From: a bacterium
GTDB lineage: Bacteria > B130-G9
Direction: 5' to 3'
DNA: 12,641 bases
Assembly: GCA_021160245.1 (NCBI GenBank)
Contig: JAGHCW010000197.1
Location: 1 to 12,641, forward strand
The notes under the pieces are model-generated. The model worked only from the letters and a program-made list of their open reading frames with translations. It was not told the origin of the DNA and did no database searches. Both the position numbers and the translations under genes were made by a program. Positions 293 through 12,399 of this stretch are shown in pieces. The stretch's first letter is position 1; each line of letters opens with the position of its first letter.

Positions 293-1369
293 TTGAGAGG
301 AATGCAGGTGGAAACGCTTAGGGAGCAGATCGAGGAAAGAGAGGGTCAATTTCTCTGCGATAAGGCTATGCTGAGCCGTAACAGCCGAGGCCGAAAGCGA
401 GACGAGTCGGAATGCGACATTCGGACCTGTTTCCAGCGTGACAGGGACAGGATCATCCACAGCAAGTCGTTCAGGCGATTGATGCACAAGACCCAAGTAT
501 TCTTAAAGCCTCGAGATGACCATTACCGAACTAGGTTGACACACACGCTCGAGGTCGGTCAGATAGCGCGGACAATATCACGGGCGCTGCGACTGAACGA
601 GGACCTGGTTGAGGCGATTGCCATGGGTCACGATCTCGGTCACACGCCATTTGGACACTCGGGAGAGGCAGCGCTGCAAGAGGTTCATCCGGGGGGGTTT
701 GAGCATCCGGAGCAATCGCTGAGGGTTGTGGACTGTCTTGAGCGGCAGGGCAAAGGCCTGAACCTCACGTTTGAGGTTCGCGATGGAATCGTCAGGCACT
801 CAAAGGGCTTATCGGACCTTATCCCTAGTGACAAGAGCGGACTGCCTCGAACGCTTGAGGGTCAGATTGTTAGGATATCGGACATCATCGCTTACGTAAA
901 TCACGACATCGACGACGCCATACGTGCCGGACTTCTGACGCCGGAGTCCATCCCCAGTGAGCTCAGCTCCGTAATTGGAACAACTCACTCCGGGAGAATC
1001 GGCGTGATGGTCAATGATGTTATCCGGGCAACCTGGGACGTTGGAATGGAGTTCATCGCCATGAGCGGCAGAATATGTGAGGCAACGGAGCGGCTGCGCG
1101 CATTTCTGCATCGGGAGGTCTATAACAACCCAACGTCCGTTGAGCAGTTCGACAAGGCCAAGAGGCTTTTGAAGCGGCTTTATCAATACTACCTCGAGCA
1201 TTTGCATCTTGTGCCTACGCCACGATTTCAGCCCAAATCGGAGAATGCTAATCAGATTGTTTGCGACTATATAGCTGGGATGACGGACGGGTTTGCCATA
1301 TTGTGTTATGAGGATGTTTTTATACCGAGACCGTGGGCACGAGCGGAGGGCGGAGATGTTTATACCTGA
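293..1369 (+). CDS. dgt: dGTP triphosphohydrolase-like HD-domain phosphohydrolase (Dgt family)
   Basis: Shows the Dgt-family signature: FQRDRDRIIHSKSFRRLMHKTQVF, DHYRTRLTHTLEVGQIAR and the HD metal motif GHDLGHTPFGHSGE. The ORF opens with TTG at 293; ATG at 302 and GTG at 308 are alternative starts, and GAGG at 297-300 could serve as an RBS. The 3' end overlaps the next gene by 14 nt. Confidence 0.85.
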   Translation: MRGMQVETLREQIEEREGQFLCDKAMLSRNSRGRKRDESECDIRTCFQRDRDRIIHSKSFRRLMHKTQVFLKPRDDHYRTRLTHTLEVGQIARTISRALRLNEDLVEAIAMGHDLGHTPFGHSGEAALQEVHPGGFEHPEQSLRVVDCLERQGKGLNLTFEVRDGIVRHSKGLSDLIPSDKSGLPRTLEGQIVRISDIIAYVNHDIDDAIRAGLLTPESIPSELSSVIGTTHSGRIGVMVNDVIRATWDVGMEFIAMSGRICEATERLRAFLHREVYNNPTSVEQFDKAKRLLKRLYQYYLEHLHLVPTPRFQPKSENANQIVCDYIAGMTDGFAILCYEDVFIPRPWARAEGGDVYT

Positions 1370-2225
1370 GATTGACCTTCATCTTCATTCCAACGCCTCA
1401 GACGGGACCGAGACCCCTTCGGTTCTGGTTCGCATGGCGAGTGAGCTCGGGCTTGCGGCAATATCGCTCACCGACCATGACACCATTGAGGGCGTCGCTG
1501 AGGCCATGAGCGAGGGTGAGCGACTGGGCGTCGAGGTCATTCCCGGCATTGAGCTCAATTCCTTCTTCATGGGGCGTCCCGTTCATATTCTGGGCCTCCT
1601 TATTGACCCGGCGAGTGATTCCCTGAGAGATTTTGCGGCGAGGCGGCGCGAGGCGCGCCTCGTGAGGGCGAGGGAGATGATTCGAAGGCTTGCCGAGGCG
1701 GGGAAGCCAATCGATATGGACTTGGTGCTTAAGACAGCCGAGGGGGGCATAGTCGGCCGAGTGCATATCGCCCGTGCCCTTGTTCAGCGCGGCGCCGCTG
1801 CATCCGTGTCCGAGGCTTTCAAGAGCTACGTGAGACGAGGCTCGCCATACTATGTGTCGCTGGACAAACCGACCCCCGAGCAGGTGATCGCTGTGATACA
1901 AGATGCCGGGGGTATTGCCGCGCTTGCGCATCCGATCTTCATCCCAGATGATGTTCTGACTTCCCTGCTTCCGATCATCCTCAGCGCCGGCATCGGCGCG
2001 GTAGAGGTGCTTTGCGGCCTGAACAAGGACAAGGCTCAGGATATAGAAAAGCACTTGCAGCGGTGCTCGGAGATGTCTGCGTTTGCAGCGGAGCACAACC
2101 TTGCGCGATGCGGAGGCTCCGATTACCACGGGCTCTCGGTGAAGGGCATCCGGCTGGGTTCCGCTCATGTGCCAATTCAGTTTCTCGAGGAACTGAAGGA
2201 GAAGCACCGTGCGATGCAAGGATGA
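1356..2225 (+). CDS. PHP-family metal-dependent phosphoesterase, TrpH/YciV (RNase AM)-like 5'-3' exonuclease family
   Basis: PHP motifs IDLHLHSNASDG and ISLTDHDT are present, with later ALAHP and GGSDYHG metal ligands. ATG at 1356 is preceded by GGAGG at 1345-1349. The ORF-track start at 1293 would overlap dgt by 77 nt, so 1356 is preferred. The stop TGA at 2223-2225 overlaps the next ATG as ATGA. Confidence 0.8.
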   Translation: MFIPEIDLHLHSNASDGTETPSVLVRMASELGLAAISLTDHDTIEGVAEAMSEGERLGVEVIPGIELNSFFMGRPVHILGLLIDPASDSLRDFAARRREARLVRAREMIRRLAEAGKPIDMDLVLKTAEGGIVGRVHIARALVQRGAAASVSEAFKSYVRRGSPYYVSLDKPTPEQVIAVIQDAGGIAALAHPIFIPDDVLTSLLPIILSAGIGAVEVLCGLNKDKAQDIEKHLQRCSEMSAFAAEHNLARCGGSDYHGLSVKGIRLGSAHVPIQFLEELKEKHRAMQG

Positions 2226-3418
2226 CACCAGTTTCACAGAACCGCGATGGCGATACTGACATCTTGGATGGCTCGATGAACCACGAGCTTGAGGCCATTG
2301 TGGTCGGCGCGGGCCCGGCGGGAGGCATCTGCGCTCTTGAGCTCGCGTCCGCCGGAATCGATGTGGCTCTGCTCGAGAAAGAGGCCCTCCCGCGCTTTAA
2401 GCTATGCGCCGGTGGCTTCAGCGAGAGGGCACAAGATTTGCTGGGGCTGGATATCTCAGACGCCATCACAAACAAGGTCGAGGCGGTGGATTTCCTGGGC
2501 AAACATCGCTCTCGTCTCCGCAAGGATTCCACCAGCATCTTCGGCTCAATAGTCGACCGGAAACTCTTCGACGCGATCATTGTGGACGAGGCGCGCCTCG
2601 CTGGATGCGCCGTTTATGACGGTGCGGGGGCCCACTCGATTGAGCGTGAGGGTGGTTTATTCCGGGTGGCCACGCAAGACGGGCGCACGTTCACGAGCAA
2701 GGCCCTTGTGGGGGCGGACGGTTCCCGCTCAGTTGTCCGGCGCCATCTTGGCTTGCCTAATTTGAGGCGCCGAGGCGTAACCGTGATGTTTGAGCTCTTG
2801 CCTAATACGGATGTGAACCTTGAGAGCACAACGATCAAGCTCGATTTCGGCGTGGTTGATCACGGATATATGTGGATATTTCCGTTCGGCAAGGGCCTAT
2901 CTGTTGGAGCTGTAACCTCAAATAACTACTTGCCCGGCGCGAGGGCGAAGGTCTTGGAGTACATTGAGGACGACGAGGCGCTCTCATCGGGTTTCGATGT
3001 AAAATTTCTGGGTGGGTGTGTGGTTCCATATTGGACAGGCGAGCGTCGTGTCGGAGACGGGGGTTGCCTTCTTGCGGGCGATGCCGCCGGCCTTGTGGAC
3101 GCCTTCATGGGGGAGGGCTTGAGCTGGGCCATCTTGAGCGGTCGTATCGCGGCTGAAGCCATCATCACGCAGCGTGGGGCCGGGCGTGGGCCGCTTGGCC
3201 TACATGCGAGATACGCCACCGCGTTGAGACGCGAAGTCCTGCCCGAGCTGAGAAAGGCCTATTGGTTCGGGCGCCTCGCCTACAAGTATAAAGAGCCCAT
3301 TTTCAAACTCGTTTCGAGACTGAGCTTCGATGGTGATGTCTTCACTAAGATGACGAGGAGCAGGGTCTCCTATAGGGCACTCATCGCTCGAATGTTCAGG
3401 CAGTTGATCCGCTTTTAG
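2222..3418 (+). CDS. FAD-dependent oxidoreductase, geranylgeranyl reductase family
   Basis: Shows the Rossmann motif IVVGAGPAGG and the KLCAGG motif (GGR-type conserved Cys), plus GADGSRSVVRRHLG and GDAAGLVDAFMGEGLSWAILSG FAD-binding motifs. ATG at 2222 overlaps the upstream stop as ATGA. An alternative start at 2276 (MNHELEAIVVGAGPAGG) gives a more typical distance to the Rossmann motif. The ORF-track start at 2012 is rejected. Confidence 0.8.
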   Translation: MTPVSQNRDGDTDILDGSMNHELEAIVVGAGPAGGICALELASAGIDVALLEKEALPRFKLCAGGFSERAQDLLGLDISDAITNKVEAVDFLGKHRSRLRKDSTSIFGSIVDRKLFDAIIVDEARLAGCAVYDGAGAHSIEREGGLFRVATQDGRTFTSKALVGADGSRSVVRRHLGLPNLRRRGVTVMFELLPNTDVNLESTTIKLDFGVVDHGYMWIFPFGKGLSVGAVTSNNYLPGARAKVLEYIEDDEALSSGFDVKFLGGCVVPYWTGERRVGDGGCLLAGDAAGLVDAFMGEGLSWAILSGRIAAEAIITQRGAGRGPLGLHARYATALRREVLPELRKAYWFGRLAYKYKEPIFKLVSRLSFDGDVFTKMTRSRVSYRALIARMFRQLIRF

Positions 3419-3476: not shown

Positions 3477-5792
3477 ATGACAGGTCTCGGTCCATTCATT
3501 GAGAAGATGATGACCTCAAAAGAGGCCGAGCGATGTATCGCCGCGAGCTGTGAGATTGCAGGGAAGGCCGCCCGATATGTCTCAGTTGCGCCGCCTTTGC
3601 CGGACCCACTCCTCCGGGGCCTCTCTGCTATCGGGATTGAGAAGTTGTACTCCCACCAGGCGGCGGCTATTGAGTCGGTGCGTCAAGGCCGGGACATTGT
3701 CGTTGTAACTTCGACGGCCAGCGGCAAATCGCTTTGCTACAATTTACCTATTCTCGAATCGCTGCTTTTCGACCCTTCCGGCAAGGCCGTTCTCATGTTC
3801 CCGACCAAGGCGCTCTCTTATGACCAGCAGGCGGCGCTGCAAGGTCTGGTTGCATCGGAACCCGAGCTGTCTGGGCGGGTCGTGTCTGGGGTATATGATG
3901 GCGATACGCCGAGCCACGCGCGAAGGAAAGTGCGAGAGAGGGCCAACGTTCTCATCACAAACCCGGACATGCTTCATCAGGGCATTCTGCCACATCATTC
4001 TCGCTGGGCGGGCCTCTTCTCGGGACTTAGGTTCGTCGTTTTGGATGAACTGCACACCTATCGGGGCATCTTCGGCTCGAATGTCGCGAATGTTATTCGA
4101 AGGCTACAACGAATTTGTGAACAATACGGCGCCAAGCCTCAGTTTATTTGCTGTTCGGCAACGATCAACAATCCCAAAGAACTTGCATCGAGGCTTACGG
4201 GCCGTCCGGTTGACCTGATAGACGACGATGGCGCGCCGCAGAGCAAAAGGCATTTCATTATATGGAACGCGCCCCCCGTTGACGCTAACGGACTGATCAG
4301 GCCGACCCGGGCGGGTCAGGCGGAGCGGCTAATATCCGAACTAATGTCCGCTGATGTGCAGACAATCGCCTTCACAAGAACCCGTATGGGTGCTGAGATT
4401 CTCTCGAAGAACATAAAGGCTCGCCTTGAGAAGCAAAAGAGTCCCCTTGCGGACCGCGTTAAGCCCTATCGAGGAGGCTACCTAGCCGAGAAGAGGCGCA
4501 GGACTGAGTCGGACCTGATGAAGCGGAAGCTGCTCGCGGTCGTAAGTACCTCGGCACTTCAGCTTGGGGTTGACATAGGGTCGCTGCAAGGGTGCGTCAT
4601 AGTCGGTTACCCCGGCACCATAGCCGGAACATGGCAGCAGGCGGGGCGTGCCGGACGAAAGCAGGGCGCGTCTCTTGCGATACTCGTGGCGGGGGCAGAC
4701 CCAGTCGATCAATACATCGCCCAGAACCCCTCCTACATCTTCGACCGGAACCCGGAGGATGCCGTCATAGACCCGATGAATCCATACATTCTCACCCAGC
4801 ATATATGTTGTGCCGCTATGGAGAGACCACTTAGGGAGGAGGACGAGGCCTTCTTTGGCCCTATGTTCAGGTCGATTGTGAAACTCCTCTCGGACTGTCA
4901 GAAACTAAAACGTATCGGCGAGACCTGGTTCTGGTCAACTGATGAATACCCATCCGGGCAGGCCGGGCTTCGAACCGTGAGCGGCAAGAAACTCACAATA
5001 CAGGCTTGGGATATGACCCATTCCGGCGACGTGGTGGGCGAGATTGACGCCGCCAGCGTTCCGTTCATAGCGCATCCCGAGGCAGTCTATCTGCATGAGG
5101 GTGAGACGTTCCTTGTGGCACATGTCGATTATGGCAGAGGCATCGTGACGGTTCAGCAGGAAGATGTCGGATATTTCACGACGCCAGTTGTCAGCACGTC
5201 GATAGACCTTAAGGAAACATACGAAAAAAAAGAGCTGCGCGGCCTCACGATCGCCTGGACGTCGGTATCCGTGACGTCTCAGACGACAGGATACATGAGG
5301 CGCCGGTTCTCGACGTTTGAGAATCTCGGGACATACGAGGTCTCGCTTGAGCCCGTTATCCTTGACACTGTGGCGACCTACATTATGATCGATGAGAGCT
5401 TGAGGGATGCTCTTGCGCTTGAGAATCTGCCGGCGGTTGGTGGCATTGTGGGTTTGAAGAATCTACTCTCCGTTGTGGTTCCACTGATTGCTATGTGTGA
5501 CAGGCTCGACATCGGGATTGTGCTTGATTCCGAGAACTTGGGCGAGCAGGCTATCTTCGTATTCGACAGGTTTGACGGGGGACTGGGCTTCTCCGAGAGA
5601 GTTATGGACAGGATTGAGGAGGTTCTCGCGATGTGCCTCAAGGTGGTGTGTGGATGCCCCTGCAAGAGGGGGTGCCCATCCTGTGTCGGGATCGCGGACC
5701 CATCGACCGAGTCGCCTGTGCTTCCAGAAAGTATGCAGTCAAAAAGAAAGAGCGCCACGAGGAGATTGCTGGAGCTTGCGCTGGATGAATAG
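3477..5792 (+). CDS. Superfamily-2 DEAD/DEAH-box helicase with C-terminal DUF1998 (MrfA_Zn-binding) domain, MrfA/YprA family
   Basis: Walker A is TSTASGKS, motif II is VLDELH, motif VI is QQAGRAGR. The C-terminal CLKVVCGCPCKRGCPSCVG matches the CxCxxGCPxC Cys4 signature of DUF1998. ATG at 3477 has a weak GGGGAT RBS; an alternative start lies at the MMTSKEAE methionines. Confidence 0.9.
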   Translation: MTGLGPFIEKMMTSKEAERCIAASCEIAGKAARYVSVAPPLPDPLLRGLSAIGIEKLYSHQAAAIESVRQGRDIVVVTSTASGKSLCYNLPILESLLFDPSGKAVLMFPTKALSYDQQAALQGLVASEPELSGRVVSGVYDGDTPSHARRKVRERANVLITNPDMLHQGILPHHSRWAGLFSGLRFVVLDELHTYRGIFGSNVANVIRRLQRICEQYGAKPQFICCSATINNPKELASRLTGRPVDLIDDDGAPQSKRHFIIWNAPPVDANGLIRPTRAGQAERLISELMSADVQTIAFTRTRMGAEILSKNIKARLEKQKSPLADRVKPYRGGYLAEKRRRTESDLMKRKLLAVVSTSALQLGVDIGSLQGCVIVGYPGTIAGTWQQAGRAGRKQGASLAILVAGADPVDQYIAQNPSYIFDRNPEDAVIDPMNPYILTQHICCAAMERPLREEDEAFFGPMFRSIVKLLSDCQKLKRIGETWFWSTDEYPSGQAGLRTVSGKKLTIQAWDMTHSGDVVGEIDAASVPFIAHPEAVYLHEGETFLVAHVDYGRGIVTVQQEDVGYFTTPVVSTSIDLKETYEKKELRGLTIAWTSVSVTSQTTGYMRRRFSTFENLGTYEVSLEPVILDTVATYIMIDESLRDALALENLPAVGGIVGLKNLLSVVVPLIAMCDRLDIGIVLDSENLGEQAIFVFDRFDGGLGFSERVMDRIEEVLAMCLKVVCGCPCKRGCPSCVGIADPSTESPVLPESMQSKRKSATRRLLELALDE

Positions 5793-5796
5793 ATAG

Positions 5797-6360
5797 GTGA
5801 ACAAGTTGGATAGACCCACAAGTATCGGGCTCCTTGAGCTCAACAGCGTCGCCATTGGGATTAAAGCCTGCGACGTCATGCTAAAGGCGGCGTTTGTGAA
5901 GCTCTTGCGGGCTACCACAATCTGCCCCGGCAAATACGTGATCATGGTCTATGGCGGTGTGGACGCAGTCAGCGCCTCGGTCCGAGATGGCCGCGACGCT
6001 GGCGGGGAAAACGTCATCGATCACCTGATCATCCCGAATATCCACTCGTCCGTAATCCCGGCCATTGCTGCCGTAACCGAGGTTCAAGAGGTGGATGCGG
6101 TCGGCGTCATAGAGACCTTCTCGGCCGCATCCGCCATCGTCGCGGGGGACCTTGCGGCAAAAGCGGCGGACGTTCAGCTGATAGAGGTCAGGCTCGCAAA
6201 TGGCCTGGGCGGAAAGTCGTTCGTCGTTCTGACGGGTGATGTGTCGGCCGTTCAGGCTGCTATAGCTGCTGGTTCCGCCCATCCAAAGGAGCAGGGACTA
6301 TTCGTTCAAAGCGTCGTCATCCCGTCGCCTCACGAAGAGCTCAAGGATGCGCTGCTATAA
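5797..6360 (+). CDS. Bacterial microcompartment tandem-domain shell protein (BMC-T), PduT-like
   Basis: Two BMC domains are present: SIGLLELNSVAIGIKACDVMLKAAFVKLL...TTICPGKY and AVGVIETFSAASAIVAGDLAAKAADVQLIEV...GDVSAVQAAIAAGS...VVIPSPHEEL. These are collinear with PduT (AIGILELTSIA...KTICPGKF / AVGIVETWSVA...VIPRPHEAM). Cys43 (codon TGC at 5923-5925) aligns with the PduT Fe-S ligand Cys38. The start is GTG at 5797, 4 nt after the helicase stop; TTG at 5806 with AGGTGA 6 nt upstream is an alternative. Confidence 0.85.
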   Translation: MNKLDRPTSIGLLELNSVAIGIKACDVMLKAAFVKLLRATTICPGKYVIMVYGGVDAVSASVRDGRDAGGENVIDHLIIPNIHSSVIPAIAAVTEVQEVDAVGVIETFSAASAIVAGDLAAKAADVQLIEVRLANGLGGKSFVVLTGDVSAVQAAIAAGSAHPKEQGLFVQSVVIPSPHEELKDALL

Positions 6361-6440: not shown

Positions 6441-7883
6441 TCAATCGGCGCCCGGCTGCTGCGCCTCAATGGTCTTCTGCTCGCCCGAGGCGTCTTGATA
6501 CGGCTCTATGCCCAGACCTTCCATGATCACCTCAATTAGGGCGATGGCTTTGTGTTCCAGCGGCAGCACTTCCTTGAGCACCTCGGCCTGCTTGTTGCGC
6601 ATTTCCTGTGTCCACGCCTCATAGTTAACGGTGAAAGGAGACGGGATGTTTTCCTCACCCTCCTTTAACAGCTCGACCTGCTGGGCGTAGATGTCGGCCA
6701 GCCGCAGGACACTTTCTCGCATGCAGCCAAACACGCCGGCGTATGTCTTCAAAAACTTGACCGCCTCCCCTCTGTCGGCTATGAAGCGCTGATATATCCA
6801 GTGGTTACCGAGTAATATGTTATCGTGTTCTTGTGTGGAGATAGAGGCGATTGAGGCCTCATTGCCGAGGAAATCTATCCAATGCTCAAGAGCGCTTGGC
6901 CCCGAATAATACGTGTCAAACTTCTTCGTTGTTCCCGCCTTGTAGGCTATCGCGAGCGATTGACGGACGGCCTCCTCGCCGGAGAGCGACTCGGATTTCT
7001 CCCCGAGGACCGCGGCCACCCACGGCGTCTTCTCAGCGATGTTGTAGTCATTCATCTCGCCATCAAAGCAGGAACGGCAGAAAAAGTCGCGCTTGCCGTT
7101 CTGGTAGCCGGTGATTATACCCCACTCGGGGACATATACGATGTCGATGCCGATAACGGGCAGGCCCCTGTCTATGCTCTTGATGATCTGCTGCCTCATC
7201 TCATCCTCGGTTAAGGCCTTCGGATCTACAGAATTCTCGCCTATCATCTCAAACCACTCTACTTCGCGCCCAAGCGCCTTAAGCAACTGCTTGGTGCAAT
7301 TGAGGCCCACACCGGGGTCCGGTGAGCTTGGGCATAGCTGCTCGTGAACTTGCAGTCTGAAGGCGCTGCCGGAGATGCCCATTAAGTAGTTGTAGTTGTG
7401 CTGCTCGCCGAAATGGGCCAGAACGCGCCTCGCACAAGCTATGAAGCTGCTTAGCTCGTTGCTCTCCATTGAGAGCGGCTCAATCCCCTCGATTATCTTC
7501 GCGTCCGGCATTCGATGGACCTTCGTCACTGTCTTGAGAGATACGCCGATCCTGCCGGGCGCAAGCGTGATGTCGATCTTCTCTTCGCCGCGTCGAATGA
7601 CAAGGCCGATGTCAGCCTTTCCGCCGGCGGCCTCGATGGCCGTGTGCAGGTCGAAGAGGCTTTCTATGGGCTTGCCGTCATACATAAGAATAACGTCGCC
7701 TGGCTTCAAGCCCTTGCTATCCGCCTGGCTTCTCGGGACCAATTGCTCGACCTCAATGTAACGCTCGACGGACTTCGGCGGCGCTGTGACCGCGGTCGTC
7801 TCCTGAACCTGATTACCTGCACAGCCCCAAAGAACCGCGACAGAAAGCAGCAATATGCAAAATAAACTCGCTTGCCTCATCAT
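6441..7883 (-). CDS. Secreted/lipoprotein with N-terminal PDZ domain and large uncharacterised C-terminal domain
   Basis: The signal peptide MMRQASLFCILLLSVAVLWGCAG has a possible lipobox Cys. A PDZ-like segment follows (GLKPGDVILMYDGKPIESLFDLHTAIEAAGGKADIGLVIRRGEEKIDITLAP). The ATG start has GAGGAG 7 nt upstream on the - strand. The roughly 330-aa C-terminal region has no family I can name from sequence alone. Confidence 0.7.
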   Translation of the reverse strand: MMRQASLFCILLLSVAVLWGCAGNQVQETTAVTAPPKSVERYIEVEQLVPRSQADSKGLKPGDVILMYDGKPIESLFDLHTAIEAAGGKADIGLVIRRGEEKIDITLAPGRIGVSLKTVTKVHRMPDAKIIEGIEPLSMESNELSSFIACARRVLAHFGEQHNYNYLMGISGSAFRLQVHEQLCPSSPDPGVGLNCTKQLLKALGREVEWFEMIGENSVDPKALTEDEMRQQIIKSIDRGLPVIGIDIVYVPEWGIITGYQNGKRDFFCRSCFDGEMNDYNIAEKTPWVAAVLGEKSESLSGEEAVRQSLAIAYKAGTTKKFDTYYSGPSALEHWIDFLGNEASIASISTQEHDNILLGNHWIYQRFIADRGEAVKFLKTYAGVFGCMRESVLRLADIYAQQVELLKEGEENIPSPFTVNYEAWTQEMRNKQAEVLKEVLPLEHKAIALIEVIMEGLGIEPYQDASGEQKTIEAQQPGAD

Positions 7884-8089: not shown

Positions 8090-8716
8090 TCACTGCGCTA
8101 GCGCTTGCGCAAACTGGTTTACAACCTCAAAATTGCGCCCGAAATCGAGAATAAGAAATCCTGAGACCGGTGTGCTGACGGCAGTGATCTCATGCGAACC
8201 ATTTTCCAGTTTATCTATCTTGAGCGTAACTCGGGATGCGTAGAAGGGCCTTGTGAACCCCTCAATACAGCCAACCTCTCGATCCACTACTCTCAACCTG
8301 ACGCCCAGGGACGAGACCGCCGAGAGAACATCGTCGAAGACCTGTTCAGGGCTGTGCTCCGGCCCGCGATGAACCACGCTGGATTGCGAGAGAAAAAGGG
8401 CTCTGCCATGAGGCGCGCCGTATTGCTTGCTCAGAGCGAGGCAGCGGTTCTTATCGTGCTTGACGACTGGCAATAAAATGGCCAGCGATATGATTGCGGA
8501 GACGAAACCGAATAGGATACCCATAACAACGACATCGCCAAATGAATATATGGGCAGCACCAGGGGATGGAGCGAGTCCTCCCGTATGATGTTTGGGCCG
8601 ACATAGAGCATGGCCACGATGACTCCTGCGCAGAAGAAGACGGAGACCGTAATCGTGATGCTCGCTACGAGTTTCGCGTATTGTCTCTTCATTCTGGTCT
8701 GAACGTGTGCTTTCAC
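8090..8716 (-). CDS. Small membrane protein with 2 TM helices and C-terminal soluble domain, unknown function
   Basis: Two hydrophobic helices are visible (ITITVSVFFCAGVIVAMLYV and VVVMGILFGFVSAIISLAILLPVV), followed by a roughly 120-aa soluble domain. The start is either GTG at 8716, overlapping the upstream stop as GTGA, or ATG at 8692. No clear Shine-Dalgarno precedes either, which fits translational coupling to the upstream FGE-domain gene. Confidence 0.6.
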   Translation of the reverse strand: MKAHVQTRMKRQYAKLVASITITVSVFFCAGVIVAMLYVGPNIIREDSLHPLVLPIYSFGDVVVMGILFGFVSAIISLAILLPVVKHDKNRCLALSKQYGAPHGRALFLSQSSVVHRGPEHSPEQVFDDVLSAVSSLGVRLRVVDREVGCIEGFTRPFYASRVTLKIDKLENGSHEITAVSTPVSGFLILDFGRNFEVVNQFAQALAQ

Positions 8717-9375
8717 TTGATCTCAATAGCCGGCGCTTTGCAGCAGCGAGCCCCATTGAAGACGTATCTGACAGATTTATCTAGCGTATAAGAGCTTCTG
8801 CAAGTCGAAAAACGGCCGCTAAGCCAACTTCCGCCGAAGATGACGGCGCTCTCCTTGTCGCTTGTCGTCCACTCTGAGACATTTCCGCTCATGTCGAAAA
8901 CGCCATAGCCACTAACGCAACCTGGAAACGTTCCCGACGGGAAGGCTTTGCTGCCGTTCATCATCCACTCCTGCTCCGTGTTGCAGGTCTCTGGAAAGTA
9001 GGAGACTCCATAAGGATAGGCGGTCTGTGCCGGGCCCTGGCACGCCGATTGCCATTCGCCGCCTGTGCAGAGCCTCTTGCCAGCCTTGAAGCAGAGCGAC
9101 TCGGCCTCGATCCAAGATATGTCGAGAATCGGCATCACTCCGATTTCATTGGGGTACTCGAAAAGATCGATGCAGAATGCCTCCTGCATCTCGCCGTCCC
9201 GGATTTTCATGGACGGAACAAGCGCCATGCCTGGGGGGCATATCAGCGATACTGTCGGAATGCGTTCCTCAAGAGTCTCGGGAGCATCCGGCGCAGCAGT
9301 TTCATCCTGTCCAAAGCCAATCATCGGTTGGCCGAAAAGGCATAGCGCGAAGCAGAATGCCAAAAAGCGTGTCAT
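8713..9375 (-). CDS. Secreted formylglycine-generating-enzyme (FGE-sulfatase/SUMF1) domain protein
   Basis: The N-terminal signal peptide is MTRFLAFCFALCLFGQPMIGFG. The hallmark FGE-sulfatase motif GVFDMSGNVSEWT is present, with flanking conserved Trp/Gly/Cys pattern and a C-terminal RCCKAP. A strong AGGAGG RBS sits about 9 nt upstream of the ATG on the - strand. Confidence 0.8.
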   Translation of the reverse strand: MTRFLAFCFALCLFGQPMIGFGQDETAAPDAPETLEERIPTVSLICPPGMALVPSMKIRDGEMQEAFCIDLFEYPNEIGVMPILDISWIEAESLCFKAGKRLCTGGEWQSACQGPAQTAYPYGVSYFPETCNTEQEWMMNGSKAFPSGTFPGCVSGYGVFDMSGNVSEWTTSDKESAVIFGGSWLSGRFSTCRSSYTLDKSVRYVFNGARCCKAPAIEIK

Positions 9376-9583
9376 GTTCGCATCCCTCCTAAGTACCGTT
9401 CTAATGTGCGCTTGAATGATTGTGAATCTAATCTCTTATATTGTGAGCTGCAAGCGCGATTACGTTACCCCCATAATCAGATTGACTGCAAAGAACATGT
9501 TGGAATAAGCGCGCTTCCTCGCTGTCCGGGGGAGTACGAGCTAAAAGGGGATCAGTCAGTGAGATGCACCAGCTGGGTGATTG

Positions 9584-9757
9584 TGGAGTGCGGAGGCTTG
9601 ACGCCGCTTTGGCTGGCCGCGGTTTGACGCGGCATCGACCTTATGTCAATTGGCGTCCGGGTCGAAAGATCGTTGTCTGAAAGGTCAAAAAGGCAATTCA
9701 TGAGAGAGTGGTGTCAAGCCACCACCAATCAAGGCGGAGTCAAGCCTCCGCACTCCA
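9584..9757. repeat. Symmetric TTGAC-core repeat element with 19-bp perfect inverted arms (MITE/REP-like or multi-site operator)
   Basis: The 19-bp arms at 9584-9602 (TGGAGTGCGGAGGCTTGAC) and 9739-9757 are exact reverse complements. Inner TTGAC and GTCAA units at 9624-9628 and 9713-9717 are each offset 26 bp from the outer ones. All four units are symmetric about the same centre near 9670.5. Two adjacent 6-bp-stem hairpins with identical TCAAGC loops lie at 9708-9725 and 9734-9751. Confidence 0.6.
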
Positions 9758-9826
9758 AAAAGCCACAGCCGCCTGCGTCAATCTGATTACTGGGGCGTTA
9801 CATTCGATAATCGATTAAGACAATGA

Positions 9827-10627
9827 CTATTTCGGCCGGAAGGTTATTGTTATGGTGCCCCATTCGACGTAGTCCTTGCCCTCCGGAAGAGATGCGAATC
9901 TCAGCGCGCGGACGTATTGGGCGGAGTAGTTGTCCAATGTGGCATCCAGTTTTCTCTCAAAGATAATTCTTGAGACCGCGCCGTCCGGCTGGACCCAGAA
10001 CTTAATGGCAACGCTCCCCGGAGTTGTGATCTCGACCTTGCTCTGCGGGGCCCTATAGACGATACTCCTTGCGGAAACGGGACCGGCAATGGCCTCAACG
10101 TTGACTGGGGACTTCCCCTTGGGGGCAGCGGAGCCTTTAGGCGCGGCGAAGTCCGGAAGACGGACACTCTCCTTTGGCTGAGCGGGCTGAAGCGACCATA
10201 AATTGTTTCGCTCCCTACCCGTGCGGCCAACGTCCCGGCTGGATGTCGCGAGCCTCGAAAGCGTCTTTTCGATCATCTCTGGCAGCCGCTTTTGAGGAAG
10301 GTCGAGCTCGTCCACTTCCAGGTTGTCATCTGCGGGAGCTGCCCGAGGACTGCGAATGAATGCGCCAAGCGGCAACTGCTGAGCGAAGGCGATTGTTGAG
10401 CTATCCAGCTCCGAGAGAAGCCTCGCCTCATCCTCTGAGGCGCCAAACGCCACCGCTTCGTAGCCCAACGCTCCATAGTCCAGCGGAAATAGGTCCACCT
10501 CGATCAGTTCTTCCATCGCTTTGTGCTTGGGAACAGCCGCCGGGACTGGGATAAGCAGAATGGCAAGCAAGTGAATGGCGACCGAGGCCAGGAGACCCCA
10601 GATGATGCAGTGTCTATCGGACGACAT
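9827..10627 (-). CDS. TonB C-terminal-domain membrane protein (energy transducer TonB family-like)
   Basis: The N-terminal TM helix is CIIWGLLASVAIHLLAILLIPVP, followed by a Pro/Ala-rich linker (AAPKGSAAPKGKSP). The C-terminal GSVAIKFWVQPDGAVSRIIFERKLDATLDNYSAQYVRALRFASLP fits the TonB_C pattern. ATG at 10627 is preferred; ATG at 10660 would overlap the upstream gene by 47 nt. The 14-nt overlap with the BMC-P gene and the absence of an SD both suggest coupling. Confidence 0.5.
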   Translation of the reverse strand: MSSDRHCIIWGLLASVAIHLLAILLIPVPAAVPKHKAMEELIEVDLFPLDYGALGYEAVAFGASEDEARLLSELDSSTIAFAQQLPLGAFIRSPRAAPADDNLEVDELDLPQKRLPEMIEKTLSRLATSSRDVGRTGRERNNLWSLQPAQPKESVRLPDFAAPKGSAAPKGKSPVNVEAIAGPVSARSIVYRAPQSKVEITTPGSVAIKFWVQPDGAVSRIIFERKLDATLDNYSAQYVRALRFASLPEGKDYVEWGTITITFRPK

Positions 10628-10880
10628 GGGTCTGGTCCACGATTCCGACGACGCACGCATCGACTGGAAGCTCGACGCCGAAGGGGTTACAAGCCTCTTT
10701 TCCAGAGACCCACAAGACGAACTCTGAGGCGCCCGCGCCGACCGAATCCAGCACGACTATTGGACTTCCGGCCGGCGTCCGATCGCTCCGCATAGGCTGC
10801 ATTAGCAGCAATCTCTTGCCGTTAAGTCGCTCGTCCTTGCGCGTCGCGACCACGTTCCCTATTATTTTGCCAAGCCTCAT
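10614..10880 (-). CDS. Bacterial microcompartment vertex protein (BMC-P, EutN/CcmL/PduN family)
   Basis: The 88-aa product MRLGKIIGNVVATRKDERLNGKRLLLMQ...VVLDSVGAGASEFVLWVSGKEA...VDACVVGIVDQTHVV is collinear with EutN (MKLAVVTGQIVCTV...AIDNIGAGTGEWVLLVSGSSAR...DLCVIGIVDEV). ATG at 10880 has a GGAGA RBS 8 nt upstream on the - strand. Confidence 0.8.
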   Translation of the reverse strand: MRLGKIIGNVVATRKDERLNGKRLLLMQPMRSDRTPAGSPIVVLDSVGAGASEFVLWVSGKEACNPFGVELPVDACVVGIVDQTHVVR

Positions 10881-11127
10881 GCCACGATTCTCCGTTTAAG
10901 GTCAGGGGGCTTTCTAGCCTGCCACACAATCCGAACAATCATCTGCGATACAATTGCCCGATTATACAATCAGACAACAATTGGCAGATTTGAAAGTCCG
11001 TCCAACGCCTTTCCGACTTGCGATTGAAAACACAGCCAGCTATGATTGCCCCTTGGGCAAGTAGTCTATAGCATAATCTCAGTCCTTGCTCAAATGATGA
11101 TTTCTAGACTACTGCAAGAGGGAGACC
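10881..11127. promoter_or_regulatory. Divergent control region between BMC-P/TonB-like operon (-) and AI-2E transporter (+) with ACAAT repeat array and a 9-bp inverted repeat
   Basis: Five ACAAT repeats sit at 10926, 10935, 10950, 10966 and 10977; they read ATTGT on the - strand. They flank a perfect - strand TATAAT at 10961-10966, about 80 nt upstream of the BMC-P ATG. The 9-bp inverted repeat AGTAGTCTA (11060-11068) and TAGACTACT (11104-11112) brackets a CATAAT -10-like hexamer at 11072-11077 just upstream of the transporter gene. An AGGGAG RBS lies at 11118-11123. Confidence 0.4.
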
Positions 11128-12399
11128 ATGGCAGCAAATAGCGGTCGCGGAAGGTCTGATCTTATCGCGAAGACCGCCATTGTGACGTTGAGCGTTGCGG
11201 GCGTTCTATGTGGGTTTTACATAATTTACGAGCTGCGTTCTCTCATCTACATGATGCTCTTCGCGTCTATTATTGCGTATGCTCTAAGCCCAATCGTCGG
11301 TCGAATGGAAGACGCGGGCATAAATCGCACGCTAGGCATAATCGTCATCACCACGCTGATAACTGGCGGCATTGTCGCCTTGCTGCTTTTTGTTATCCCC
11401 ACAATACTCAGGGAGATAGCGGAGTTCTTCCAGGGGTTTCCGACCTACTTCGAGCAAGGCCGTGCATTGCTTATATCCCTCTGGGAGAGGTTCTTTGGCG
11501 AGAGCTTCCCATCCAACGTCCAGTCGTTTCTGGATACTATCGCTCCCAGTTCGGCCACGCTGAAATCCATCGCATCAAAGGCCATCAAACCTCTCGGAAC
11601 GCTTCTTGCAGGGGCATTCACCGGCGTCGTTGGATTCATCGTATGGATTGTTGGGCTTGCAATTGCCCCGGTGGTGATATTCTATCTGTTGCGTGATTTT
11701 GAGCGAATTGTGGACGGCGCGGTCGCGCTAATTCCTGTCAGCCGAAAGGAAACTGTGGTGAGTTTATTCAAAGAGATCAATGAGACGCTGGGGAATTTAA
11801 TTCGAGGCCAGCTGCTGGTTGCGCTAATTCTCTCGATTTTCTACAGCGCGGGATTCTATTTTATCGGCGTTCCTTATGCAGTACTACTCGGCTTCATATC
11901 GGGCTCTGCAAACATCATCCCCTACTTCAGCCTCGTCGTCGGTCTAATCCCCGCCATTGTGGTCGCCTCCATTCACTTCGCAAACTGGGTTGAGCCGCTC
12001 TACGTGGTCCTTCTCTTCGCAGTGGTCCAGACGCTGGAGGGTTTTGTCTTAACCCCTAAGATAGTCGGGAAAAAGGTCGGCCTGCATCCGCTTCTGATCA
12101 TCCTCGCGCTCCTCGTCGGCGCCTCGTTGGGCGGCATAGTAGGTGTGCTCCTGGCCGTGCCAAGCGCGGCTGTGTTGAAGGTAGTCGTAACGCATTTCCA
12201 TCGGAAACTGAAGGGCAGAACTGAGCAGGAGGAGGCATCGGGATCATCCATTGATGGCGAGATCACGCAAGAGCAAAGCCCTGATGCGGCTCCGCACGTC
12301 GATTCAAAGACCTCGCCGGCAATTGAGGCTCAAAAAGATGGCGAAGAGGCCCAGCAGAATGATGAGCGACAGGGCAAGGACCCTTGCCAATCATCGTAG
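11128..12399 (+). CDS. AI-2E family transporter (UPF0118/PerM-type permease)
   Basis: The protein is polytopic, with about 8 hydrophobic helices. Its conserved C-terminal core (QTLEGFVLTPKIVGKKVGLHPLLIILALLVGASLGGIVGVLLAVP) is typical of the AI-2E_transport family. ATG at 11128 has a good RBS, and the C-terminal tail is acidic/Gln-rich and disordered. Confidence 0.85.
   Translation: MAANSGRGRSDLIAKTAIVTLSVAGVLCGFYIIYELRSLIYMMLFASIIAYALSPIVGRMEDAGINRTLGIIVITTLITGGIVALLLFVIPTILREIAEFFQGFPTYFEQGRALLISLWERFFGESFPSNVQSFLDTIAPSSATLKSIASKAIKPLGTLLAGAFTGVVGFIVWIVGLAIAPVVIFYLLRDFERIVDGAVALIPVSRKETVVSLFKEINETLGNLIRGQLLVALILSIFYSAGFYFIGVPYAVLLGFISGSANIIPYFSLVVGLIPAIVVASIHFANWVEPLYVVLLFAVVQTLEGFVLTPKIVGKKVGLHPLLIILALLVGASLGGIVGVLLAVPSAAVLKVVVTHFHRKLKGRTEQEEASGSSIDGEITQEQSPDAAPHVDSKTSPAIEAQKDGEEAQQNDERQGKDPCQSS

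Follow-up and report, generated by a model that had tools for sequence, protein, structure and literature searches.

In the fragmented (FRAG) types of bacterial microcompartment (BMC), the shell genes are found in up to six places, mostly remote from the enzymes (Sutter et al. 2021, PMC8217296). FRAG BMCs are common in candidate phyla, and satellite shell loci are described more generally in the same work; the FRAG types are defined by a triplet of BMC-P vertex proteins (the green, grey and orange clades) and at least one BMC-H, with no enzymes or encapsulation peptides found for several of them (PMC8217296). A BMC-P of Candidatus (Ca.) Coatesbacteria is listed in the BMC-P tree of the same catalogue as 'fragmented (sat) (omitted)' (PMC8217296). 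The stretch considered here, contig JAGHCW010000197.1 of assembly GCA_021160245.1, is a complete contig of a metagenome-assembled genome (12,641 nt, hereafter the window) and contains a single BMC-P gene of the EutN/CcmL type, the 3' end of which overlaps the start of a gene coding for a divergent TonB-like protein. As the scattering of shell genes, including the Coatesbacteria BMC-P, has been published, the orphan status of this gene represents a known condition rather than an anomaly, and the statement in the preliminary description of this DNA that clusters of shell and enzyme genes are the normal setting of BMC-P overlooked the FRAG types. The novelty lies in the overlapping BMC-P/tonB operon, found in one uncultured lineage, and here the earlier view that the pairing is an undescribed arrangement holds: literature searches combining BMC-P or EutN with TonB retrieved no report of such a pairing, 'TonB' is unmentioned in the main text and searched supplements of PMC8217296, and a search for Coatesbacteria with microcompartments gave nothing relevant beyond that catalogue. 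The pair and its immediate surroundings comprise the following features.

9764-9777, minus strand: terminator-like hairpin and T-run, ~50 nt 3' of the tonB-like stop codon (pattern scan)
9827-10627 (or to 10660: 277 aa), minus strand: divergent TonB-like gene, 266 aa from the conserved start
9830-10105, minus strand: C-terminal TonB domain, the final 92 residues (AlphaFold2 and Foldseek)
10535-10606, minus strand: sole N-terminal transmembrane helix, with the SxxxH motif (SVAIH) (hydropathy and alignments)
10614-10627, minus strand: 14-nt overlap, with the tonB-like ATG falling within the final codons and TAG stop of BMC-P
10614-10880, minus strand: BMC-P (EutN/CcmL-type vertex) gene, 88 aa, first of the pair (PF03319, 92.6 bits)
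10881-11127, no strand assigned: divergent intergenic region separating the pair from the AI-2E permease gene, with presumed promoters
10889-10893, minus strand: Shine-Dalgarno-like GGAGA, 8 nt 5' of the BMC-P ATG (read from the sequence)
11128-12399, plus strand: AI-2E family permease, conserved divergent neighbour (PF01594, 206.9 bits)

The description of the 88-aa product as a pentamer-type shell protein was borne out. Its match to the EutN_CcmL profile (PF03319) far exceeds the cut-off of 25 bits and spans profile positions 1-83 of 83, the closest solved structure is that of the Haliangium ochraceum shell BMC-P (5V74; E 4.5e-16), and an alignment with the BMC-P structures 5V74 and 4I7A covers the protein over its whole length. 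The core motifs D-x-V-G-A-G-x-x-E and, near the C-terminus, G-I-V-D are kept, with D45, G48, A49, G50, E53 and G79-I80-V81-D82 invariant or almost so in the BMC-P alignment (A2). By these comparisons the protein is a genuine BMC-P, for which the role of a vertex-capping pentamer is predicted. Exact look-ups of this protein and of the TonB-like protein returned no entry. In homology searches the lineage orthologues form a group of 69-100% identity, clearly separate from the next matches (≤59%). Outside the lineage, the 51 closest BMC-P loci belong to the Vicinamibacterales, Pyrinomonadaceae, Solibacteraceae, Bacteroidales and other groups. Nearly all of them are shell clusters, in which a BMC-H gene is typically followed by three BMC-P genes, and the window protein finds its best match in the middle BMC-P of such triplets. 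Sequence similarity thus identifies it as an orthologue of the middle member of the Acidobacteria-type BMC-P triplets, and indicates that an ancestral triplet member became isolated and was joined to a tonB paralogue in one lineage.

The good ribosome-binding site described for the BMC-P gene was recognised in the GGAGA preceding its ATG. The tonB-like open reading frame (ORF) has two in-frame ATG codons, at 10660 (47-nt overlap with the BMC-P gene) and at 10627 (14-nt overlap). An ATG equivalent to that at 10627 is present in all of the lineage loci that were compared (L052-L059 and L064-L071; 16 loci with the window, representing nine sequence variants), the overlap being 14 nt in 14 of them and 11 nt in two, and in L056, L057 and L059 an in-frame stop cuts off the upstream (10660-type) ATG, so that the 14-nt overlap, as first proposed, is the conserved arrangement. 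The claim that the downstream gene lacks a Shine-Dalgarno sequence of its own is correct as regards a strong one; a weak Shine-Dalgarno-like GTGGA does occur 11-15 nt 5' of the 10627 ATG, within the BMC-P codons for the conserved I-V-D. Given this layout, translational coupling from BMC-P to the tonB-like gene is plausible.

Scans for sigma-70 promoters and terminators yielded counts not above the shuffled background, with no promoter called on the minus strand, and an Rfam search of the leader and intergenic regions, including 10881-11127, returned no credible match and no riboswitch. A GATGTGATATAAGCT(A/T)GAG motif is common to L052, L055, L056 and L057, where it lies ~70-90 nt 5' of the BMC-P start and may represent a promoter or operator. 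The window leader (10881-11127) carries TGTATAAT at a similar distance, without the complete motif, and the leader region of L055 contains unrelated hairpin-rich insertions.

The second gene of the pair was described as encoding an N-terminal membrane anchor, a Pro/Ala-rich linker and a TonB_C-like domain. Taken alone, the window protein falls below the thresholds of both the Pfam TonB_C profile (PF03544; 19.4 bits, threshold 24.6) and TIGR01352 (22.6 bits, threshold 27.1), which could speak for a chance resemblance to TonB. Against this stand four separate lines of evidence, namely Pfam matches across the family, relatives in exbBD-tonB operons, the SxxxH helix and an independent fold match, and it is on these that the assignment rests. 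The TonB_C profile is matched by 14 of the 15 members of the TonB-like family (best E 5.3e-07), and its threshold is reached by nine of ten distant relatives checked. Where the genomic context of distant relatives could be read (L060, L073 and L074), they are encoded in exbB-exbD-tonB or receptor-exbB-tonB operons. The anchor was found as a single hydrophobic peak at residues 8-26. S26 and H30 (277-aa numbering) are invariant in the lineage alignment (A1), and S-x3-H is the consensus of the wider TonB subfamily (65-sequence alignment A3); we take this motif to correspond to the S16/H20 motif of E. coli TonB.

The final 92 residues were modelled with AlphaFold2 on a deeper alignment, and the model has high confidence (predicted local distance difference test (pLDDT) 95.9, predicted template modelling score (pTM) 0.86). 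When it was compared with the PDB by Foldseek, the top 14 matches were all TonB C-terminal domains, followed by TolA, and the best was the Pseudomonas aeruginosa TonB bound to FoxA (6i97_D; TMq 0.72, root-mean-square deviation 2.4 Å). The full-length model is poor (pLDDT 44.8), with a spacer of low confidence, and was not used for the fold search; the family profile gave weak matches to PDB sequences, all of them TonB (E 0.08-0.5), which are not decisive alone. From the sequence and model evidence together, the assignment of the downstream gene as a divergent but genuine member of the TonB family is considered secure, and the TonB_C-like domain originally proposed can be retained despite the sub-threshold score of the window protein. 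The linker was described less accurately. Within the periplasmic spacer of ~150 aa, residues 91-185 are moderately rich in Pro and Ala (11.6% each) without EP/KP repeats, whereas residues 32-90 are strongly conserved, lineage-specific and non-Pro, and match no Pfam family (alignment A1). The full-length family is tiny, with 15 hits, one of which is annotated as Ca. Coatesbacteria. A search of its profile against 1.84 billion representative proteins retrieved only two full-length clusters (E<1e-30), together with hundreds of proteins of ~250-290 aa in which the match covers the C-terminal part and, in many cases, the N-terminus as well.

Conservation of the pair in relatives, which had been suggested as a check, was observed throughout: the BMC-P gene is followed by an overlapping TonB-like gene at all 16 loci, and wherever enough upstream DNA is available, the pair is adjoined by the AI-2E permease gene, which faces away from it. 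Identity of the TonB-like proteins among loci falls to ~47-62% and synonymous sites are saturated, with synonymous divergence (dS) between the window and the other variants exceeding 1.7. In unsaturated pairs the ratio of nonsynonymous to synonymous substitution rates (dN/dS) is 0.09-0.18 for BMC-P and, within the TonB-like protein, 0.13-0.23 for the C-terminal domain and 0.13-0.29 for the remainder. Both genes are under purifying selection and the BMC-P/tonB linkage is old. Since the pair is conserved and its downstream product belongs to the TonB family, dismissal of the pair as a non-conserved association with a protein other than TonB fails.

The regions bordering the pair differ in their conservation. 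The genes 3' of the TonB-like gene differ in nearly every variant, and ~10 kb upstream of the pair is syntenic in relatives, a block that the window contig stops short of. In L052 and L054-L057 the upstream block codes for an NHL-repeat protein of ~3,400 aa, a PQQ beta-propeller protein of ~1,250 aa and a radical-SAM/DUF512 enzyme, followed by the AI-2E permease. Two inverted REP-like copies of ~57 nt (77% complementary; 9572-9628 and 9713-9769) fill, together with the terminator-like hairpin, the 450-nt gap 3' of the TonB-like gene, exactly at the synteny break. Downstream of this gap in the window, a 220-aa protein with an FGE-sulfatase domain and an overlapping 208-aa membrane protein are encoded (8090-9375, minus strand). 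An FGE-like ORF (1230-1946) also directly follows the TonB-like gene in L070, and a peptidase-C14/FGE fusion (12709-14634) is encoded nearby in L054. The FGE-type genes downstream of the pair may be what remains of a longer operon in an ancestor.

The persistence of the overlap in 16 of 16 loci, despite saturated synonymous sites and a synteny break right downstream, is what would be expected if the two proteins were physically or functionally coupled. The docking site of the vertex pentamer could be the cytoplasmic tail of the TonB-like protein or the motor that this protein engages, which would tether the microcompartment at an inner-membrane uptake site or link uptake to the organelle; alternatively, the EutN-fold protein could serve as a cytoplasmic accessory of a Ton-type motor. 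In keeping with this, full-length members of the TonB-like family occur only in the very lineage that carries this orthologue of BMC-P, the BMC-P gene takes the operon position held by exbB-exbD in distant relatives, and the BMC-P clade has substitutions of its own, such as GAGASE in place of GAGVGE. By homology with TonB, however, the part of the TonB-like protein in the cytoplasm, where BMC-P would be located, would comprise only its ~7-10 N-terminal residues, and the apparent conservation of this tail (MSxDxR) is confounded by the overlapping BMC-P stop codon. Furthermore, a TonB-like gene is found within 10 kb in none of the 51 nearest outside BMC-P loci, and the BMC-T gene in the window is linked equally tightly to a helicase gene with which it has no plausible functional tie. 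Coupling of either kind is therefore considered unlikely.

As the window is a whole contig, its own flanks are out of view, and the pair might be the edge of a complete BMC locus located beyond the contig. The flanking DNA was judged from the relatives, 8-10 kb of which was inspected on each side of the pair. In these flanks no BMC-H, further BMC-P, BMC-T or cargo enzyme gene is found, and no ExbB or ExbD homologue occurs there in any lineage locus. A full BMC locus just outside the window, which had been named as an alternative, was thus sought and is absent beside either shell gene in the flanks of the relatives, and the interpretation of the pair as the edge of such a locus is rejected. Together with a chance resemblance to TonB, it is exceedingly improbable.

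The second shell gene of the window encodes a BMC-T protein and is located in a separate block on the opposite strand. The remaining features of the window are listed below.

293-1369, plus strand: HD-domain hydrolase (profile matches)
1293-2225, plus strand: PHP phosphoesterase (profile matches)
2012-3418, plus strand: geranylgeranyl-reductase-family flavoprotein (profile matches)
3477-5792, plus strand: DEAH/MrfA-type helicase (profile matches)
5797-6360, plus strand: tandem-domain (PduT-type) BMC-T, the second, separately placed shell gene (PF00936, 150 bits, two domains)
6441-7883, minus strand: PDZ protein (profile matches)
8090-8716, minus strand: 208-aa membrane protein
8713-9375, minus strand: secreted FGE-sulfatase-domain protein (profile matches)

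Both domains of the BMC-T are recognised by the PF00936 profile, and its TICPGK sequence aligns with the CPGK of PduT, with the pore-cysteine motif intact. The gene starts 4 nt after the end of the DEAH/MrfA-type DNA helicase gene, a gap that is conserved in L061-L063, as is the whole block consisting of the HD, PHP, reductase, helicase and BMC-T genes and the convergent PDZ gene; no other shell gene is found near this block in L061-L063. A PduS-like partner is not encoded near the BMC-T gene. The product of the PDZ gene, which is always convergent with BMC-T in relatives, is a 480-aa protein with a signal peptide, one PDZ domain and a conserved C-terminal region of ~350 aa without a family match. 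The longest ORF of the geranylgeranyl-reductase-family gene (2012-3418, plus strand) is extended at its N-terminus by ~90 residues, the codons of which overlap the PHP gene; as the orthologues are only 383-392 aa in length, its real start is probably near residue 85-90.

The BMC-T and BMC-P genes were initially described as lying about 4 kb apart in separate operons without cargo genes. The genes and the absence of cargo hold, but the ~4-kb spacing is limited to this genome and to L064, a twin 98% identical to it; in the other relatives, a distance of more than 10 kb separates the two blocks, or they lie on different contigs. In the manner of the dispersed shell genes of FRAG types, BMC-P and BMC-T each occupy a conserved non-BMC block of their own, and shell genes in this lineage seem to be arranged by tight linkage to unrelated genes. 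Because the BMC-T gene is joined to the helicase gene as tightly as BMC-P is to the tonB-like gene, tight linkage of a shell gene is not specific evidence of joint function here and does not demonstrate the functional pairing of BMC-P and the TonB-like protein implied in the preliminary description.

Approximately 229 kb of lineage DNA, which is redundant and represents a small part of each genome, was scanned, and no BMC-H, extra BMC-P, cargo enzyme or ExbBD gene was found in it. This might suggest that shell building has been lost from the EutN-fold protein, which would serve some other purpose, either by itself or together with the TonB-like protein, in an organism without a microcompartment, and the FRAG types without enzymes or encapsulation peptides (Sutter et al., PMC8217296) would be in line with such a loss. 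Set against this are the PduT-type BMC-T, which is conserved with its pore cysteine in the lineage and is encoded on the same contig here, the full-length similarity and core motifs that BMC-P shares with triplet members from shell clusters, and the small, redundant part of each genome that was covered. A role outside the shell is thus quite improbable.

The interpretation that is given a modest preference is that of a co-expressed bicistron, the products of which act in different compartments. In a lineage related to Ca. Coatesbacteria, the two-gene operon would be transcribed from its own promoter region, facing away from the AI-2E permease gene, and ribosomes ending BMC-P would probably re-initiate on the tonB ATG located 14 nt inside the BMC-P end, so that both proteins would be made together. 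BMC-P, as part of a dispersed, FRAG-style shell set, would close off the vertices of a shell in the cytoplasm, of which the PduT-like BMC-T would be a further component. The TonB-like protein would have a short cytoplasmic tail and, as the SxxxH helix has been retained, would engage an ExbB/ExbD-type motor encoded elsewhere, energising outer-membrane uptake. With the two products in different compartments, their linkage would most likely be regulatory or historical and locked by the overlap, without a physical complex. For this we infer co-transcription, translational coupling, an N-in topology and BMC-H and ExbBD genes at other places in the genome. Several observations weigh against the bicistron with separate roles. 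The absence of BMC-H, additional BMC-P, cargo and ExbBD genes from the ~229 kb of DNA scanned means that a complete shell and a Ton motor are assumed for these genomes. Retention of the overlapping pair despite downstream rearrangement is also expected of a functionally linked pair. Part of the conservation of the pair may, moreover, be plain shared ancestry, since the ~10 kb upstream is syntenic as well.

The positioning of microcompartments and the delivery of their substrates are known for few systems. To our knowledge, no shell protein has yet been tied to the cell envelope, and we know of no function for the FRAG microcompartments. If the coupling were real, the pair would be the first case of a BMC shell protein connected to the cell envelope. 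If the genes are only co-expressed, the pair would mark a condition under which this lineage builds its shell, and would illustrate that scattered shell genes can sit in housekeeping operons, which matters for the automated calling of BMC loci. In either case, a vertex gene that has overlapped a tonB paralogue through deep divergence represents a cheaply testable lead with a bearing on the FRAG microcompartments, and the analysis defines a highly divergent TonB subfamily that is missed by the standard Pfam thresholds.

When compared with canonical TonB of E. coli and P. aeruginosa (1XX3, 6I97 and 6FIP), the window protein is distinguished by the BMC-P gene upstream of its own gene, with exbB and exbD not nearby, by a spacer other than a Pro-rich EP/KP rod, carrying a conserved acidic/Ala segment unique to the lineage, and by a sequence too divergent to reach the Pfam TonB_C threshold. 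It resembles canonical TonB in the single N-terminal SxxxH helix and long periplasmic spacer, in the beta-beta-alpha-beta C-terminal domain, which in the model superposes on the solved TonB domains, and in that distant relatives of its subfamily are encoded in exbB-exbD-tonB operons. Relative to the Acidobacteria-type (ACI/PVM-like) clusters of BMC-H and three BMC-P, the window BMC-P stands alone, without BMC-H or a sister BMC-P beside it, carries the lineage-specific GAGASE and LWV-S/T-GKEA sequences, and overlaps a tonB-like gene of which the 51 nearest outside loci contain no counterpart; it is nevertheless up to 59% identical to the middle BMC-P of these clusters and has the G(K/R)EAS-PF motif in common with them. 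The FRAG and satellite loci differ in that no TonB partner is mentioned for them in the catalogue, in which the Coatesbacteria entry is left untyped, and in that their types include a BMC-P triplet and BMC-H, where one BMC-P and no BMC-H is visible in the lineage DNA scanned. They are matched by the window in its BMC-P and PduT-like BMC-T genes, which are scattered singly, remote from recognisable cargo, in a member of a candidate phylum.

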